A stretch of DNA of 64,000 bases from Escherichia phage BP32 (OR906198.1), one strand, 5' to 3'; shown: positions 7,662 through 39,260, counted from the first letter of the stretch. The notes: generated by a model not told the origin, from the letters alone. A program made the numbers and translations.

Positions 7662-8591
7662 ATGAAAACTCGTAAACATTATATTGATTATTTTGACAGT
7701 CTTATTACTAAACATCGTAATTATCAGATCGGGCACAGAGCAGTAATCAATAATATTCTTCGTGATTTCCTTCAATATGTTGGCCAGGAAAATCATATCT
7801 GTAAAGATACTCAAAACGCTTATTCTCATTCGTTGGGCAATTTGCTTCAATGGTTTAAACGTTCTCGTCTGTTATCTTCTACTGTAGCTAGTGATAACAT
7901 TAAAAACTTTATGAAGCCGAGCTTCATTAAATCTGCGACATCTATAACCGATTTGGTTGAATTTACTATTGTTAACGATGTTAAAAAGACCCATTTGGCT
8001 GATTGGTTATCTACCATTCCTGAAACTAAATTTGCTGATAAATTCGCTTGTCAATTCAATGACCAAGTGAATATGCTTTTTAAGCATGCTCGTAAACTAT
8101 TTACCGCGGGTGATGACCGTACAAATACAGTTCATGTTAAGGACTGGGTTATTGCTGATGAAGTAACACACAAGCCAGGTGGTTCATCAGTATTAATTAA
8201 TATCCAGGTTCCTTATTATTACTCACGTAATCTCGGCACCATGACAGCTAGAGAAATTAATAAGCATAACAAAACTATTCGTTCGTTGTCTTATAAACTC
8301 TGCACGATGGTGGAGATGATGGACGTAGTGGAAATGTATGACGAAACCGAAGATAATGGTTCAATGTTATACAGTTCACGCATTCTAATTAAACTGAAGA
8401 ACCCTAATACGTATAAGCCAGTTGTAAAAGAACCTAAAATAGAAAAGGTTGATAACTTGAGCGAAGAACGTGAATACCTCAAATCTCGACTAGTTGAAGT
8501 TGAAGCTCAGATTGCCGAACACACTAAATTGTTAAAAGCTCTTAATGCAAAAGCAAATGGTTTACGTAATGCTATTGAGGTATTGAAATGA
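7662..8591 (+). CDS. hypothetical protein with C-terminal coiled coil; paralogue array member 4 (309 aa)
   Basis: Track ORF; N-terminus MKTRK..; C-terminal coiled coil. Confidence 0.7.
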   Translation: MKTRKHYIDYFDSLITKHRNYQIGHRAVINNILRDFLQYVGQENHICKDTQNAYSHSLGNLLQWFKRSRLLSSTVASDNIKNFMKPSFIKSATSITDLVEFTIVNDVKKTHLADWLSTIPETKFADKFACQFNDQVNMLFKHARKLFTAGDDRTNTVHVKDWVIADEVTHKPGGSSVLINIQVPYYYSRNLGTMTAREINKHNKTIRSLSYKLCTMVEMMDVVEMYDETEDNGSMLYSSRILIKLKNPNTYKPVVKEPKIEKVDNLSEEREYLKSRLVEVEAQIAEHTKLLKALNAKANGLRNAIEVLK

Positions 8592-8905
8592 AAAAGCGTC
8601 TATTAGAAGATATTGCAGCTTCAAGTAATTCCAGTCTAATTAAAATTATTATGGCTGGTGAAGAAGACGATTTAGAAATGCGTGGAAAGATTCATGGTTG
8701 TGACGATCTAGACTTTAAACCTCCTGCTTGGGATGCCATTATGGCTATGGTTGAACGCCGCGAAAGGGCTTCTAAGAATGTTCCGAACTGCCCAAAATGT
8801 GGTACTAAACAGGTCCAATTGGTCAATTGGCATAAACCAGAACTTGAATATAAATGTCGTCATTGCAAACACCGATTTAACCGAGAAGAAAATGCCCAAG
8901 CGTAA
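8588..8905 (+). CDS. small zinc-ribbon protein (105 aa)
   Basis: CPKCG ... CRHCKH four-cysteine motif; ATGA overlap with upstream gene. Confidence 0.6.
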
Positions 8906-9794: not shown

Positions 9795-10115
9795 ATGACT
9801 ATTGAAAATAAATTAGATGTTGATGCAGTTCTGAGTGAAATCATCGAAGACCATGATGCATTTTCAGAAAACTATGATTTCGATTTTTCGGATTATCTTA
9901 AACCTGTCGAAATAGAAGACTGGGTACAAGATGGCAAATGCCAATATCGGCAGTGTGTTTATTTTAGCCCAAAACATAATGTACATGTTTCCGTAAATGA
10001 ATGCCGTTCAGGTTCTTACCATTCTGACTGGTATTATGCAGTTCCGACTGTTGAATTAGTCGAGCCCCGTGAACGTGTAGTAACTCAGACAATACGAGAA
10101 TGGATTACGCTATAA
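9795..10115 (+). CDS. hypothetical protein (106 aa)
   Basis: Track ORF. Confidence 0.55.
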   Translation: MTIENKLDVDAVLSEIIEDHDAFSENYDFDFSDYLKPVEIEDWVQDGKCQYRQCVYFSPKHNVHVSVNECRSGSYHSDWYYAVPTVELVEPRERVVTQTIREWITL

Positions 10116-11208: not shown

Positions 11209-13022
11209 CAATTGAAAAAGAAATTGAAGGATTAATTCATAAAACTAATAAAGACCTTTTGAACGAGAATGCTAATAAAGATTCTCGTGTTTTTCCAACT
11301 CAACGGGACCTTATGGCTGGTATTGTGTCTAAACACATTGCCAAAAATATGGTCCCGTCTTTTATTATGAAAGCGCATGAAAGCGGAATTATTCATTTCC
11401 ATGATATTGATTATTCCCCTGCTCTTCCATTTACTAATTGCTGTTTAGTAGATTTAAAAGGAATGCTTGAGAACGGATTTAAGCTCGGTAATGCACAGAT
11501 TGAAACTCCTAAATCAATCGGCGTTGCTACTGCAATTATGGCGCAAATTACTGCACAGGTTGCTTCCCATCAATATGGTGGAACGACTTTTGCGAATGTA
11601 GACAAAGTACTTTCTCCTTATGTTAAACGCACCTATGCAAAACATATTGAAGATGCAGAAAAATGGCAAATCGCTGATGCGCTGAATTACGCCCAGTCTA
11701 AAACAGAAAAAGACGTATACGATGCATTCCAAGCTTATGAATATGAAGTAAATACTCTCTTTAGTTCAAACGGACAAACGCCCTTTGTAACAATTACATT
11801 TGGCACGGGAACTGACTGGACTGAACGAATGATTCAGAAAGCAATTCTGAAAAATCGTATCAAAGGTCTTGGTCGTGATGGGATAACTCCTATTTTCCCT
11901 AAGCTTGTTATGTTCGTTGAAGAGGGTGTTAATCTTTATAAAGACGATCCGAACTATGATATTAAGCAGCTTGCTCTAGAGTGTGCAAGTAAAAGAATGT
12001 ATCCTGACATCATTTCGGCTAAGAACAATAAAGCTATCACAGGTTCATCTATTCCTGTTTCTCCAATGGGTTGCCGCAGTTTCTTAAGTGTATGGAAAGA
12101 TTCGACTGGTAATGAAATTCTTGATGGACGTAATAATCTTGGCGTTGTAACACTGAATCTTCCTCGTATTGCGTTAGATTCTTATATTGGAACACAGTTC
12201 AATGAACAGAAATTTGCCGAATTGTTCAATGAACGAATGGATTTATGTTTTGAAGCTTTGATGTGTAGAATCAGTTCCTTAAAAGGAGTTAAAGCTACTG
12301 TTGCTCCTATTCTTTACCAAGAAGGTGCATTCGGGGTTCGTCTTAAACCTGATGACGATATAATTGAGTTATTTAAAAACGGTAGAAGTTCAGTGTCCCT
12401 AGGATACATTGGTATTCACGAATTGAATATTCTTGTCGGTCGTGATATTGGACAAGAAATTTTAACTAAAATGAATACTCATCTTAAACAATGGACTGAA
12501 AGAACCGGATTTGCTTTTAGTTTATATTCTACTCCTGCTGAAAACCTGTGCTATCGCTTCTGTAAACTTGATACCGAAAAATATGGAAGTGTAAAAGATG
12601 TTACCGATAAAGGCTGGTACACTAACAGTTTCCACGTTTCAGTAGAAGAAAATATTACTCCGTTTGAAAAGATTTCTCGCGAAGCACCGTATCATTTCAT
12701 TGCGACAGGTGGTCACATTTCTTATGTTGAACTTCCTGATATGAAAAATAACCTAAAAGGTCTTGAGGCTGTATGGGATTATGCTGCACAACATTTAGAT
12801 TATTTTGGTGTTAATATGCCAGTAGATAAATGTTTTACATGCGGAAGTACCCATGAAATGACTCCTACTGAAAACGGATTTGTTTGTTCTATTTGTGGAG
12901 AAACTGATCCTAAAAAGATGAACACAATAAGAAGAACATGTGGCTATTTGGGAAATCCGAATGAACGCGGATTTAATCTTGGCAAAAATAAAGAAATCAT
13001 GCATAGGGTTAAACACCAATGA
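11205..13022 (+). CDS. nrdD: anaerobic ribonucleoside-triphosphate reductase
   Basis: 605 aa uninterrupted ORF; C-terminal glycyl-radical region and Cys cluster (CFTCG ... CSICG); ATGA overlap with gene 49. Confidence 0.95.
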   Translation: MTIEKEIEGLIHKTNKDLLNENANKDSRVFPTQRDLMAGIVSKHIAKNMVPSFIMKAHESGIIHFHDIDYSPALPFTNCCLVDLKGMLENGFKLGNAQIETPKSIGVATAIMAQITAQVASHQYGGTTFANVDKVLSPYVKRTYAKHIEDAEKWQIADALNYAQSKTEKDVYDAFQAYEYEVNTLFSSNGQTPFVTITFGTGTDWTERMIQKAILKNRIKGLGRDGITPIFPKLVMFVEEGVNLYKDDPNYDIKQLALECASKRMYPDIISAKNNKAITGSSIPVSPMGCRSFLSVWKDSTGNEILDGRNNLGVVTLNLPRIALDSYIGTQFNEQKFAELFNERMDLCFEALMCRISSLKGVKATVAPILYQEGAFGVRLKPDDDIIELFKNGRSSVSLGYIGIHELNILVGRDIGQEILTKMNTHLKQWTERTGFAFSLYSTPAENLCYRFCKLDTEKYGSVKDVTDKGWYTNSFHVSVEENITPFEKISREAPYHFIATGGHISYVELPDMKNNLKGLEAVWDYAAQHLDYFGVNMPVDKCFTCGSTHEMTPTENGFVCSICGETDPKKMNTIRRTCGYLGNPNERGFNLGKNKEIMHRVKHQ

Positions 13023-13489
13023 ATTATGATAGATTTTATCCTTGCGATTTTGTGAATGGCCCTGGATGCAGGGTCGTTCTTTTCGTTACAGGTTGTTTGC
13101 ATAAATGCGAAGGGTGTTATAATAAATCAACGTGGAATGCTAGAAATGGCGTTCCATTCACTGGTGAAACACTGGAACAATTAATTGAATGTTTGAATAA
13201 TGATTATATAGAAGGATTAACTATAACTGGAGGAGACCCTCTTTATCCTGATAATCGAGATGTTGTTCATTGCATTGTTCAAACAGTAAAAAATCTTTAT
13301 CCAAATAAAAGCATTTGGTTGTGGACAGGATATAAATTTGAAGATATTAAACAACTAGAAATGCTTAAATATGTTGATGTTATTATTGATGGGAAGTATG
13401 AGAAAAATCTTCCGACCAAAAAGCTGTGGCGAGGTTCAGATAATCAGCGACTTTGGTCAAATACCGATGGGGTGTGGAAACATGATTAA
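13019..13489 (+). CDS. nrdG: anaerobic RNR activating protein (radical SAM)
   Basis: 156 aa; CLHKCEGC cluster; ATGA overlap with nrdD. Confidence 0.9.
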   Translation: MNYDRFYPCDFVNGPGCRVVLFVTGCLHKCEGCYNKSTWNARNGVPFTGETLEQLIECLNNDYIEGLTITGGDPLYPDNRDVVHCIVQTVKNLYPNKSIWLWTGYKFEDIKQLEMLKYVDVIIDGKYEKNLPTKKLWRGSDNQRLWSNTDGVWKHD

Positions 13490-17529: not shown

Positions 17530-18732
17530 ATGAAAGTATGCATTTTTATGGCTCGAGGTCTTGAAGGTTGTGGTGTAACTAAATTTTCTCTTGAGCAACG
17601 TGATTGGTTTATTAAAAATGGTCATGAAGTAACTTTGGTTTATGCTAAAGATAAATCATTTACTCGTAATTGCGCGCATGATTATAAGTCATTTTCAATT
17701 CCAGTTTTATTGGCAAAAGAATACGATAAAACACTTAAGCTGGTAAATGATTGTGATATTCTAATTATCAATTCAGTTCCTGCTACTTCAGTAGAAGAAG
17801 ACACTATTAATAACTATAAAAAAATTATTGATAACATTAAACCTTCGGTTCGTGTTGTAGTTTATCAGCATGACCATTCTTCTCTTTCTTTGCGCCGAAA
17901 TTTGGGATTAGAAGAAACTGTTCGTCGAGCTGATGTTATTTTTAGCCATTCTGATAATGGTGATTTTAATAAAGTTCTGATGAAAGAATGGTATCCGGAA
18001 ACTGTTTCTCTGTTTGATGATATTGAAGAAGCACCGACCGTATATAACTTTCAGCCTCCTATGGATATTGCGAAGGTTCGATCAACCTACTGGAAAGATG
18101 TTTCTGAAATTAACATGAATATCAACCGTTGGATTGGTCGTACTACTACATGGAAAGGCTTTTATCAGATGTTTGATTTTCACGAAAAACATCTTAAACC
18201 TGCAGGACTAAGTACTATTATGGAAGGTCTGGAACGTTCTCCAGCTTTCATTCCTATTAAAGAAAAAGGAATTCCATACGAGTATTATCGTCTTCATCAA
18301 GTAGACCAAATTAAAATTGCTCCTAATTTGCCGACGCAAATTCTCGACCGTTATGTAAATAGCGAAATGCTTGAACGCATGAGTAAATCCGGATTTGGTT
18401 ATCAGCTGAGTAAGTTGGACAAAAAATATCTACAACGTTCTTTAGAATATACTCATCTCGAGCTTGGTGCATGTGGAACAATTCCGGTATTTTGGAAATC
18501 TACGGGCGAAAATTTAAAATTCCGTGTTGATAACACTCCGTTAATTTCTCATGATAGCGGTATCGTTTGGTTTGATGAAAATGACATGGAATCAACATTT
18601 GAACGTATTAAAGAACTGTCATCTGACCGAGCTCTTTATGACCGCGAACGTGAAAAAGCTTATGAATTTTTGTATCAGCATCAAGATTCAAGCTTCTGCT
18701 TTAAAGAACAGTTTGACATTATTACAAAATAA
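17530..18732 (+). CDS. agt: DNA alpha-glucosyltransferase
   Basis: 400 aa; near-identical to my recall of T4 alpha-gt (CIFMARGLEGCGVTKFSLEQRDWFIKNGHEV...). Confidence 0.9.
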   Translation: MKVCIFMARGLEGCGVTKFSLEQRDWFIKNGHEVTLVYAKDKSFTRNCAHDYKSFSIPVLLAKEYDKTLKLVNDCDILIINSVPATSVEEDTINNYKKIIDNIKPSVRVVVYQHDHSSLSLRRNLGLEETVRRADVIFSHSDNGDFNKVLMKEWYPETVSLFDDIEEAPTVYNFQPPMDIAKVRSTYWKDVSEINMNINRWIGRTTTWKGFYQMFDFHEKHLKPAGLSTIMEGLERSPAFIPIKEKGIPYEYYRLHQVDQIKIAPNLPTQILDRYVNSEMLERMSKSGFGYQLSKLDKKYLQRSLEYTHLELGACGTIPVFWKSTGENLKFRVDNTPLISHDSGIVWFDENDMESTFERIKELSSDRALYDREREKAYEFLYQHQDSSFCFKEQFDIITK

Positions 18733-18752
18733 AGGGCTTCGGCCCTTTAGCT
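18731..18752 (+). terminator. rho-independent terminator after alpha-gt
   Basis: AAAGGGC-TTCG-GCCCTTT hairpin; T-run interrupted. Confidence 0.6.
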
Positions 18753-18771
18753 TTATACGGAGTTTGATATA

Positions 18772-18912
18772 ATGATATTCCTTGGATATGTGATACTTTT
18801 TCTAGCGTTTTATCTATTCACTAGAGCATGTTGGATTGGGTTCTTTAGCACCCCAGATGGATTTATTTCAATAATTTTATTTTGCATTTCAATGACGGTT
18901 CTTGATATATGA
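18772..18912 (+). CDS. small hydrophobic peptide (46 aa)
   Basis: Hand-translated ORF MIFLGYVILFLAFYLF...; ATGA overlap with the downstream GIY-YIG gene. Confidence 0.3.
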   Translation: MIFLGYVILFLAFYLFTRACWIGFFSTPDGFISIILFCISMTVLDI

Positions 18913-19532
18913 AAAAATATATAACTTATTTAACAATATATAGTGGAGATAAACTTCCTCCTTTTTATATTGGATCTACATCTTTAGATAGGCATTTAGC
19001 CGGATATCATGGATCAGTTTTATCTAAAAAGTATAAGAAAATTTATAATGAAGAACTTTCAAATAACCCACATTTATTTGATTCATGCATTTTAGATGAA
19101 TTTGATACGCGCGAAGAAGCTATTAAATGCGAGCTATATTATCAACGTTTGCATGATGCGGTTAAAAATCCATTATTCTTTAATATGTCATATGCTGCTC
19201 CAAAAGGTTCATTTGGAAGAGATATTAAAGGACAAAATCATCCATTATATGGTTCTCATAATTGTAAAGGAAACATACATTCACATGACCCATTAACAGG
19301 AAAATCTGCCTTTTTACCGTATATTCCAGAAGGTTATGTAAAAGGAAGGTCAAATAAATTTAAAGCTTCATCACATAATAAAGGTAAAAAATGGTATAAT
19401 AACGGAGTTAAGCAAATGTTATGTCATGAACCTCCTGGTCCTGAATGGACAAAGGGAAAAATTAAAGAACTAGTTTCAAAAGCAGCTAAATTAGGATGGA
19501 AAAGACACCATGAAAATACTAAACTTGGGTGA
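18909..19532 (+). CDS. GIY-YIG family endonuclease, seg-like (putative homing endonuclease)
   Basis: N-terminal YITYLTIYSGDKLPPFYIGSTS ... R ... E ... N resembles the GIY-(x8-11)-YIG catalytic module; C-terminal KKWYNNG resembles NUMOD-type DNA-binding motifs of T4 Seg proteins. Confidence 0.6.
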   Translation: MKKYITYLTIYSGDKLPPFYIGSTSLDRHLAGYHGSVLSKKYKKIYNEELSNNPHLFDSCILDEFDTREEAIKCELYYQRLHDAVKNPLFFNMSYAAPKGSFGRDIKGQNHPLYGSHNCKGNIHSHDPLTGKSAFLPYIPEGYVKGRSNKFKASSHNKGKKWYNNGVKQMLCHEPPGPEWTKGKIKELVSKAAKLGWKRHHENTKLG

Positions 19533-20529
19533 TTGGCATTTAGGCGTTAAAGCTGATGATGAGTGGATTCGCGGTATTCAAATTGATGGAATTAAGCAAG
19601 CGATAGAATATTCTAAGAAAAATGGAATTACGGTATGGATTCAATACGGTGATATTTTTGATGTACGAAAAGCGATCACGCATAAAACTATGGAGTTTGC
19701 TCGTGAAATAGTTCAAATGCTTGATGGCGCTGGAATCACATTACATACTATTGTAGGAAATCACGATCTCCACTATAAAAATGTAATGCATCCAAACGCT
19801 TCTACTGAGCTTTTGGCTAAATATCCTAATGTTAAAGTATATGATAAGCCTACTACAGTAGATTTTGACGGATGTTTGATTGATTTAATTCCTTGGATGT
19901 GTGAAGAAAATACTGGTGAAATTCTTGAACACATCAAAACTTCATCTGCTTCTTTTTGTGTTGGTCACTGGGAGCTGAATGGATTTTATTTTTATAAAGG
20001 AATGAAATCTCACGGTCTTGAACCTGATTTCCTTAAGACTTATAAAGAGGTTTGGTCTGGTCACTTCCATACTATCTCTGAGGCTGCTAACGTCAAATAT
20101 ATTGGGACACCATGGACACTAACTGCAGGTGACGAGAATGACCCTCGCGGGTTCTGGATGTTTGATACAGAAACAGAACGAATGGAATTTATTCCAAACA
20201 ACACTACCTGGCATCGTCGAATTCAATATCCATTTAAGGGAAAAATTGACTATAAAGATTTTACAAATCTATCAGTACGTGTTATAGTAACTGAGGTAGA
20301 CAAAAATCTGACGAAGTTCGAATCTGAACTAGAAAAAGTTGTGCATTCATTACGAGTTGTGTCAAAGATTGATAACTCTGTTGAGTCAGATGATAGTGAA
20401 GAAGTTGAAGTTCAATCTCTTCAGACGTTGATGGAAGAATATATTAATGCAATTCCAGACATCACTGATTCTGATCGCGAAGCACTTATTCAATATGCAA
20501 ATCAGTTATATGTAGAGGCAACACAATGA
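19510..20529 (+). CDS. 47: recombination nuclease subunit gp47 (Mre11-like)
   Basis: 339 aa; phosphoesterase motifs GDWHLG, GNHD; matches my recall of T4 gp47. Confidence 0.9.
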   Translation: MKILNLGDWHLGVKADDEWIRGIQIDGIKQAIEYSKKNGITVWIQYGDIFDVRKAITHKTMEFAREIVQMLDGAGITLHTIVGNHDLHYKNVMHPNASTELLAKYPNVKVYDKPTTVDFDGCLIDLIPWMCEENTGEILEHIKTSSASFCVGHWELNGFYFYKGMKSHGLEPDFLKTYKEVWSGHFHTISEAANVKYIGTPWTLTAGDENDPRGFWMFDTETERMEFIPNNTTWHRRIQYPFKGKIDYKDFTNLSVRVIVTEVDKNLTKFESELEKVVHSLRVVSKIDNSVESDDSEEVEVQSLQTLMEEYINAIPDITDSDREALIQYANQLYVEATQ

Positions 20530-37015: not shown

Positions 37016-38355
<1,340 letters not shown>

Positions 38356-38413: not shown

Positions 38414-38932
38414 ATGGCTTACTTTAATGAATGTTCACAACTGATTGAAGGCGCTGATAAAGCTCAAAACGAATACTGGGATATTCTCGGTGATGAAAAA
38501 GACCCGCTGCAGGTTATGCTTGATATGCAGAAATCTTTACAGGTTCGTTTAGCTAAAGATAAACCTGAATATAACCGTCATCCTGATGATTTGGCTACTG
38601 CTGGTGAAGTTGTTGATTGGCTACGTAATCAGAAAGATTATATTGACGATGAATTCCGTGAACTTCTGACATCTCTTGGCGGTATGAGCAATGGCGAAAA
38701 AGATGCATCTGCTGTATGGAAGCCTTGGAAAGCTCAACACGGTGAACGCCGCGAAACTCTAATTACTGATTTGTCTCCACAAGACCAGTTGGAAATTAAA
38801 TTCGAAATGATTGATATTCTTCATTTCGTTCTGAACATGTTCCAAGGTCTTGGTCTTACGGCTGAAGAAATCTTTAAACTTTATTATCTGAAAAATGCTG
38901 AAAACTTCGCTCGTCAAGACCGAGGTTATTAA
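38414..38932 (+). CDS. 56: dCTP/dCDP pyrophosphatase gp56
   Basis: 171 aa from MAYFNECSQLIEGADKAQNEYWD; length and sequence match my recall of T4 gp56. Confidence 0.88.
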   Translation: MAYFNECSQLIEGADKAQNEYWDILGDEKDPLQVMLDMQKSLQVRLAKDKPEYNRHPDDLATAGEVVDWLRNQKDYIDDEFRELLTSLGGMSNGEKDASAVWKPWKAQHGERRETLITDLSPQDQLEIKFEMIDILHFVLNMFQGLGLTAEEIFKLYYLKNAENFARQDRGY

Positions 38933-39014: not shown

Positions 39015-39260
39015 ATGGCTAGTACTCGCGGTTATGTTAATATCAAAACATTTGAGCAGAAATTAGATGGAAATAAGAAAATTGAAGGAAAGGAAATTTC
39101 AGTAGCTTTCCCTCTTTATTCTGACGTTCACAAAATTTCTGGCGCTCATTACCAGACATTCCCTTCAGAAAAAGCAGCATATACTACTGTATATGAAGAA
39201 AATCAGCGTACTGAATGGATTGCTGCAAACGAAGATTTGTGGAAAGTAACTGGCGGTTAA
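39015..39260 (+). CDS. soc: small outer capsid protein Soc
   Basis: 81 aa; MASTRGYVNIKTFEQKLDGNKKIEGKE matches my recall of T4 Soc; late promoter upstream, terminator downstream. Confidence 0.92.
   Translation: MASTRGYVNIKTFEQKLDGNKKIEGKEISVAFPLYSDVHKISGAHYQTFPSEKAAYTTVYEENQRTEWIAANEDLWKVTGG

Follow-up and report, generated by a model that had tools for sequence, protein, structure and literature searches.

A free-standing Seg-like GIY-YIG endonuclease gene between genes 47.1 and 47 of Escherichia phage BP32

Introduction

The Seg endonucleases of phage T4 (SegA-SegG) are encoded by free-standing genes that lie between phage genes and carry an N-terminal GIY-YIG domain, and T4 SegF is a proven GIY-YIG homing endonuclease. 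A second well-described relative is I-TevI, the endonuclease of the T4 td intron. Here we describe a gene of the Seg kind in Escherichia phage BP32 (OR906198.1). The stretch of DNA analyzed, hereafter the window, is 64 kb long and belongs to a Tequatrovirus; over the region studied here, phages SH-1, SH-2 and SA20RB share 98.7% identity with it. Our literature searches turned up no account of an endonuclease at the site occupied here, between genes 47.1 and 47, and a gene 47 endonuclease is not listed in a 2010 review of T4 mobile elements.

The BP32 gene resembles the T4 seg genes in many respects. Like them it stands free between phage genes, has an N-terminal GIY-YIG domain, encodes a protein in the range of about 200-220 residues, is AT-rich, occurs sporadically among relatives and is accompanied by silent differences in the adjoining essential gene. 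The family to which it belongs has the Seg-type GY.GS motif, which reads GYHGS in the BP32 protein, GYMGSG in SegA and KYPGSG in SegF, and the BP32 protein, like SegA and SegF, has no arginine at the canonical I-TevI spacing. All three proteins match the same region of the phrog_314 profile, and the BP32 protein shares with SegF a KKFYSNGG-like motif. However, it also departs from the T4 enzymes. Its gene lies at the 47.1/47 junction, which is empty in T4, and its stop codon falls within the start of the proposed target gene; SegA and SegF have no tblastn match in the window and T4 records are absent among the ORF matches listed; and its C-terminus is made up of two predicted hairpin modules with no Pfam NUMOD3 match. 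The distance from I-TevI is seen in the lack of any surrounding intron (Rfam returned nothing), in the lack of a zinc finger or helix-turn-helix domain, in an identity of just 16-19% and in helix alpha1, which bears R27 and H31 in I-TevI and is much longer there than its BP32 counterpart. By profile and predicted fold the BP32 gene is of the Seg type but is the orthologue of no T4 seg gene.

Results

An initial annotation of the window had proposed a Seg-like endonuclease gene of 207 codons between alpha-gt and gene 47. An ORF map bears out a 207-codon reading frame that begins with ATG and runs from 18909 to 19532 on the plus strand, as well as a 23-nt overlap with gene 47, which arises because gene 47 begins at 19510. 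Gene 47 (19510-20529, plus strand) is the right flank of the endonuclease gene and its proposed target; the product of 339 residues, starting MKILNLGDWHLG..., is 98-99% identical to T4 gp47, the SbcD/Mre11-like recombination nuclease subunit that resects breaks in T4 recombination. While the gene 47 side of the proposed location thus holds, the left neighbor is not alpha-gt: the intervening sequence 18772-18912 (plus strand) is T4 gene 47.1, encoding a 46-aa predicted membrane protein that is 100% identical to T4 gp47.1 (phrog_6693, E 1.5e-31), so that 47.1 and 47 bracket the insertion. Gene 47.1 is found in nearly all relatives, including phages without the endonuclease gene, and we place this conserved T4 gene outside the mobile element, although the span first noted had started at 18772. 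The endonuclease ORF is more than a chance frame because it has 173 database homologues, a low dN/dS and an AlphaFold (AF2) model with an N-terminal pLDDT above 93. Five Tequatrovirus copies compared in pairs give dN/dS of 0.05-0.08, with dS reaching 0.16, and therefore the protein is still under selection. The ORF stands alone between its two neighbors, with no Rfam intron in 18300-19900.

The initial annotation had suggested that comparing this junction among T-even phages would define the insertion, and it does: the insert is 601 bp long, lies between 47.1 and 47, and is bounded by ATGAAAA. In T4, 47.1 is joined straight to 47 by ATGA (...GATATATGAAAATTTTAAAT...), the T4-type junction sequence being ...GATATATGAAAATTTTAAATTTAGGTGATTGGCATTTAGG..., and alignment with T4, as with phage SHFML-26, shows that BP32 has 601 bp more at this point, flanked by two plus-strand copies of the 7-nt direct repeat ATGAAAA. 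The left copy is at 18909-18915 and the right copy, which is the start of gene 47, at 19510-19516. The GC content of the insert is 30.4%, compared with 35-36% in alpha-gt and gene 47. The endonuclease ATG overlaps the 47.1 stop codon as ATGA and is coupled to it in the arrangement that gene 47 has in T4, its own stop lies 23 nt within gene 47, and the initiation and ribosome-binding region of gene 47 now falls within the endonuclease ORF. Upstream of 47.1 are a terminator-like GC hairpin that follows alpha-gt (18730-18749, plus strand), detected by a scan, annotated as a terminator in SA20RB and identical in T4, and a MotA-type middle-promoter-like site, GCTTTA-N12-TATAAT (18750-18773, plus strand), identified by pattern match and listed as a T4 middle promoter by the SA20RB annotation. 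We infer that 47.1, the endonuclease gene and gene 47 would be under the control of this site. Over 18750-18775, its -10 element overlaps the 47.1 ATG, and therefore transcripts would begin within 47.1 and could not express it, leaving just the endonuclease gene and gene 47 to be served by them.

Rather than being a conserved non-nuclease gene at this position, the ORF is a presence/absence polymorphism among relatives. About 521 Tequatrovirus records match the flanks, and 68-69 of them (about 13%) carry the insert, which is absent from T4, T2, T6, RB3, RB14, RB27 and AR1. Carriers vary in their other mobile genes (SA20RB has both mobC and the nrdD intron and BP32 has neither), and a table of flanking haplotypes displays general mosaicism with no clean carrier block.

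The start of gene 47 distinguishes carriers from phages that lack the gene. In BP32, gene 47 begins ATG AAA ATA CTA AAC TTG compared with ATG AAA ATT TTA AAT TTA in T4, a difference of four silent changes in codons 3-6 (nt 9, 10, 15 and 18; 19518-19527, plus strand), and the next differences between the two genes lie past nt 60. Among the genomes compared, ATT TTA AAT TTA is present in 8/8 T4-type Tequatroviruses without the endonuclease gene and ATA CTA AAC TTG in 5/5 carriers. With an 80-nt probe of the junction, 60/60 carrier records among the matches listed have at most one mismatch, and about 445 records lacking the gene are at most 95% identical to the 40-nt gene 47 part, making them T4 type or more divergent. 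Two independent replicates come from other genera. The first is Klebsiella phage HMGUkp2, a carrier whose endonuclease is 59% identical to that of BP32 and whose nearest non-carriers are kv_tblp5 and phi1_146055. Of the first 134 nt of its gene 47, nt 9, 12, 16, 17, 18 and 21 alone differ from kv_tblp5, and these six positions plus nt 69 differ from phi1_146055; each of the six changes is synonymous, among them a serine swap from AGC to TCG that alters three bases. The second replicate is in Dhakavirus, where gene 47 of the carrier QL01 differs from that of its relative L025 at nt 9, 12, 15 and 18. The background divergence of this pair is about 9%, so the Dhakavirus replicate is weaker.

Recoding of codons 3-6 fits self-immunity at a target in the 5' end of gene 47. 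On the simplest reading, the core that is recognized or cleaved would lie at about nt 9-21 of gene 47, beside the block that encodes GDWHLG, and the silent changes would block cleavage. We considered whether the overlapping endonuclease frame could have forced the recoding and rejected this explanation: with T4-type nucleotides the frame is open to the same TGA, and therefore the overlap does not force the changes. The same fact bears on a reading in which the protein is an active homing endonuclease with its site elsewhere, deeper in gene 47 or in 47.1, and codons 3-6 are donor sequence that travels with it. Seg enzymes can cut hundreds of base pairs away from their own genes, T4 SegF and SegG are reported to cut away from theirs, and the start of gene 47 doubles as the coding sequence for the endonuclease C-terminal tail ...HENTKLG, so these nucleotides are doubly constrained. 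However, three lineages with endonucleases 59-61% identical each have synonymous-only changes within nt 9-21, and identity resumes afterwards, lasting beyond 110 nt in the Klebsiella pair and throughout nt 19-60 in Tequatrovirus. The AGC/TCG swap requires three changes, and T4-type nucleotides would have left the stop where it is. We regard a distant site as possible but unlikely, and favor a target at the start of gene 47.

We also scanned diversity around the insert in five carriers and eight non-carriers, a sample that is too small for co-conversion tracts. Divergence between carriers and non-carriers peaks over the opening 200 nt of gene 47. Among the five carriers there is no clear dip in diversity beside the insert, so this small sample gives no sweep-like signal of recent homing.

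The initial annotation considered the insertion site to be new. This is true relative to T4, but in the databases the gene 47 site is occupied in at least six genera: Tequatrovirus, Jiaodavirus, Dhakavirus, Gelderlandvirus, Winklervirus and Biquartavirus. Carriers at this site outside Tequatrovirus include Jiaodavirus-like Klebsiella phages, Dhakavirus, Gelderlandvirus SEA1, Winklervirus LC53 and Biquartavirus avDM2. These homologues, with 50-81% identity, lie directly 5' of gene 47 and usually overlap its ATG, and their common C-terminal ...(H/N)EN... is gene 47 ATGAAAAT read in the endonuclease frame. The right boundary of the insert is constant across genera; the left boundary follows 47.1 in Tequatrovirus, a 60-nt spacer is replaced in the Klebsiella phages, and 47.1 is missing in QL01. 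Paralogues occur at other loci, for example upstream of the topoisomerase gene 39 in Mosigvirus JM10. They are 60-70% identical to the BP32 protein in the catalytic domain, over the first 115-125 residues or so, but carry other C-terminal DNA-binding modules (NUMOD3 repeats) and occupy other insertion sites, a combination that fits retargeting through module swapping. The Dhakavirus-like contigs L026 and L029 match at 96-100% identity save for one block (L026, about 2390-2850) in which identity falls to 56-69%. The block covers the last 40 or so codons of the endonuclease gene and runs about 350 bp into gene 47, and the L029 endonuclease, 251 residues long, has a longer and unrelated C-terminus. 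Because the block spans both, the putative DNA-binding end and the neighboring proposed target region have been exchanged together.

Several copies of the gene are broken or gone. The ZCEC15 copy has a +1 A frameshift at nt 478, where a homopolymer sequencing error is possible, and ESh36 has the same two-piece pattern; in KNP1 and KNP5 about 124 bp are missing from within the endonuclease gene. In SHFML-26, BCPEco_001, BCPSen_003 and Ec_YwIITB1 the gene is absent and the recoded gene 47 start is retained. Exact deletion between the ATGAAAA repeats would produce this very sequence; alternatively, these alleles could have been resistant before any invasion. Together, the database records display the life cycle of a homing endonuclease, with intact, frameshifted, deleted and precisely lost copies.

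These copies also bear on whether the protein is a selfish element at all. It might instead be a domesticated GIY-YIG protein kept for the benefit of the phage, with a role in the regulation or coupling of gp47 translation or as a nuclease against competitors or host defenses. The strong purifying selection on the gene, its position and overlap with the gene 47 start in all six genera, and the ribosome-binding region of gene 47 within its ORF would all suit such a role, and side roles are reported for other phage homing endonucleases. However, only about 13% of Tequatroviruses and no classical T-even phage carry the gene, frameshifted, deleted and precisely lost copies exist, and the carrier-specific recoding matches what self-immunity predicts, so that we consider domestication improbable. 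We give similarly little weight to a related proposal, in which the genes in at least six Straboviridae genera would form a distinct Seg lineage on the gene 47 start that is in part a regulator or addiction module and not a pure parasite. This proposal builds on the position of the endonuclease stop inside the first codons of gene 47, which would make the translation of the endonuclease and the translation start of its target interdependent. If it were true, gp47 synthesis could be coupled to translation of the endonuclease.

Sequence and structure comparisons support the GIY-YIG assignment of the protein. As the initial annotation had anticipated, a profile search returns a match to the Pfam GIY-YIG family (PF01541), though one that falls under the Pfam cut-off (E 9.3e-4; 19.9 bits vs a cut-off of 22.6; profile positions 2-74 of 78). 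In the control searches, T4 SegA scored 37.4 bits and T4 SegF had no match, and 15 of 34 relatives of the BP32 protein have a GIY-YIG Pfam match, the best with an E of 2.4e-5. The annotation had also proposed a search for NUMOD domains; the 207-aa protein has no Pfam NUMOD3 match, and NUMOD3 is present in 15 of the 34 relatives. NCBIfam gave nothing for the ORF, and phmmer and hmmsearch against PDB sequences gave nothing relevant. In PHROGs, the ORF matches phrog_10820 with an E of 2e-93 and phrog_314 with an E of 3.1e-18 (profile positions 176-369), the latter in the same region as SegA (E 1.7e-43, positions 170-360) and SegF (E 1.5e-23, positions 173-341). Compared directly with SegA, the family HMM gives a weak score of 6.5-8.8 bits.

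All of the motifs listed in the initial annotation are present in the ORF (TIY at 9-11, FYIGSTS at 19-25, R28, E75, N92 and KKWYNNG at 160-166). The GIY-YIG module is upheld but the assignment of TIY as its "GIY" triplet is not: a joint multiple alignment with SegA, SegF and I-TevI puts the tyrosine at Y7 rather than Y11, and the triplet is therefore ITY (5-7). The catalytic residues were mapped by multiple alignment and secondary structure because hhalign, run with the family alignment against I-TevI as a lone sequence, left the catalytic domains unaligned (probability 11%). Every member of the joint alignment, from the family to T4 SegA, SegF and I-TevI, has Y7, Y20, G22, E75 and N92, whose I-TevI counterparts are Y6, Y17, G19, E75 and N90; Y7, Y20, E75 and N92 are likewise invariant in the 34 relatives. 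Of the two residues on which the annotation had staked its reading, the glutamate is thus invariant, and the presumed catalytic arginine (R28) is present in the BP32 protein in a column dominated by arginine or lysine. R28 sits at the start of a short helix (26-30), and the column holds arginine or lysine in most relatives and asparagine or glutamine in a few.

The AF2 model, built from a 34-sequence alignment, has a pLDDT of 93-98 over residues 1-100. In the model, elements b1 (4-11), b2 (19-25), a1 (26-30), a2 (43-52), b3 (57-65) and a3 (68-81) follow one another and form a three-stranded sheet with flanking helices, like those of I-TevI and UvrC. Foldseek pairs it with the I-TevI structures 1LN0 and 1MK0 with a probability of 0.99-1.0, and a structure search of viral models returned 54 phage GIY-YIG, NUMOD or Seg-like proteins at E<=1e-3. 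The catalytic domain spans residues 1 to about 104 (18909-19220, plus strand) and contains Y7, Y20-I-G22, R28, GYHGS (32-36), E75 and N92. Residues 121-184 (19269-19460, plus strand) form a putative DNA-binding region of two beta-hairpin modules, one at 121-147, ending PEGYVKGR, and one at 160-184 (KKWYNNG...PGPEWTKGK), for which the model has strand pairs 123-126/133-136 and 161-164/169-172. The WYNNG...GW.KG motif is conserved among relatives, the SegF sequence KKFYSNGG aligns weakly to KKWYNNG, and some relatives have NUMOD3 repeats in the linker in place of the hairpin modules. These features suggest that the two C-terminal modules bind DNA.

Could the protein be a catalytically dead relic that persists through linkage to gene 47? 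The sub-threshold Pfam score, the variable arginine column and the visibly broken copies are what such a relic might leave, but dN/dS of 0.05-0.08 over dS values up to 0.16 and four active-site residues held invariant in 34 relatives are difficult to reconcile with it, and the proven enzyme SegF scores below the BP32 ORF in Pfam. We therefore think this explanation very unlikely. That the protein is an HNH endonuclease, as phrog_10820 is described and as many RefSeq records and PHROG-based annotations have it, can be dismissed with near certainty, since no Pfam HNH match appears even at E<=10 and the fold and motifs are those of GIY-YIG proteins. The label "HNH endonuclease" on the phrog_10820 family is therefore wrong. 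We note that the family carries it systematically in RefSeq and in Pharokka-style annotations; GenBank names for the gene are "hypothetical protein", "putative homing endonuclease" or "HNH endonuclease".

Discussion

The invariant residues, the phrog_314 match, the I-TevI-like fold and the presence/absence polymorphism support the view that the BP32 gene is a free-standing Seg-like GIY-YIG endonuclease gene. We consider it probable that the enzyme is a functional Seg-type homing endonuclease that targets the T4-type start of gene 47 and that the carrier is protected by codons 3-6. We infer nuclease activity, the target and cut position, and homing or marker exclusion; the silent recoding in carriers supports the localized marker exclusion around gene 47 that the initial annotation had suggested. 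The L026/L029 mosaic block and the carrier/non-carrier divergence peak at the gene 47 start are indirect signs of such exclusion and of site-specific cleavage.

In the scenario that we envision, 47.1, the endonuclease gene and 47 share a transcript, and the endonuclease start codon is coupled to the stop codon of 47.1. When a carrier and a relative lacking the gene infect the same cell, the enzyme would recognize the 47.1/47 junction of that relative through a site with its core at about nt 9-21 of gene 47, adjoining the conserved GDWHLG-coding block, and would introduce a double-strand break there. Repair off the carrier genome would then bring in the 601-bp cassette along with the recoded gene 47 start beside it, and the four silent changes in codons 3-6 would shield the carrier from its own enzyme.

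The element is ordinary in kind and will not surprise a specialist in phage mobile elements. It adds a lineage to the classic Seg homing endonucleases of the T-even phages, at a site that T4 leaves empty, and it corrects a widespread database label, since the family is GIY-YIG and not HNH. In addition, the carrier-linked synonymous recoding in three genera predicts a target at about nt 9-21 of gene 47, so cleavage and mixed-infection experiments can be designed directly.

The sites at which T4 carries mobile endonucleases had been described as empty in this window, and they are. Searches by tblastn with T4 SegA, SegF and MobB and with the SA20RB MobC and nrdD-intron endonuclease found nothing in the 64-kb window, and alignment to SA20RB reveals clean absences in BP32 of 1.0 kb at the nrdD intron and 0.8 kb at mobC. 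Gene 56 ends at 38932 and soc occupies 39015-39254; with soc following only 83 nt past gene 56, there is no space for segF. At the mobC position, about 40 nt of the window (13018-13058) align with both ends of the SA20RB insert (L034, 13690-13730 and 14519-14559), and the first 13 MobC codons match this stretch exactly. A direct repeat of about 40 bp, one copy of which is in the window, therefore seems to flank mobC, much as ATGAAAA flanks the gene 47 endonuclease gene.

Relatives of BP32 have further annotated homing endonuclease genes in the neighborhood of gene 46 and rpbA that are absent from the window. In ZCEC15 such a gene, with a weak HNH match, lies on the opposite strand from 46 and 45.2 and between them, PaulHMueller has an annotated homing endonuclease gene after rpbA, and SHFML-26 has a feature labeled "homing endonuclease" at the gene 46 position; the coordinates of these genes are 8156-8872 (minus strand) in L035, 8796-9301 in L036 and 3464-4100 in L033.

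Two other ORFs in the window belong to stretches that differ among relatives. A 106-aa ORF (9795-10115) lies in the 49.x/nrdC region, within a 340-bp stretch that is absent from SA20RB. A 186-aa ORF (37016-37576) is directly upstream of the Dam methyltransferase gene (37576-38355) and is coupled to it by ATGA. At its position T4 has just 310 nt of unannotated DNA and SA20RB is without the whole 1.4 kb. The ORF occurs in about 155 phage records, where it is annotated as "hypothetical protein", and it belongs to phrog_8706, a family with no assigned function, with a weak, sub-threshold Pfam match to the DpnII restriction endonuclease (E 0.002). Its product may be a GATC-specific nuclease paired with Dam.
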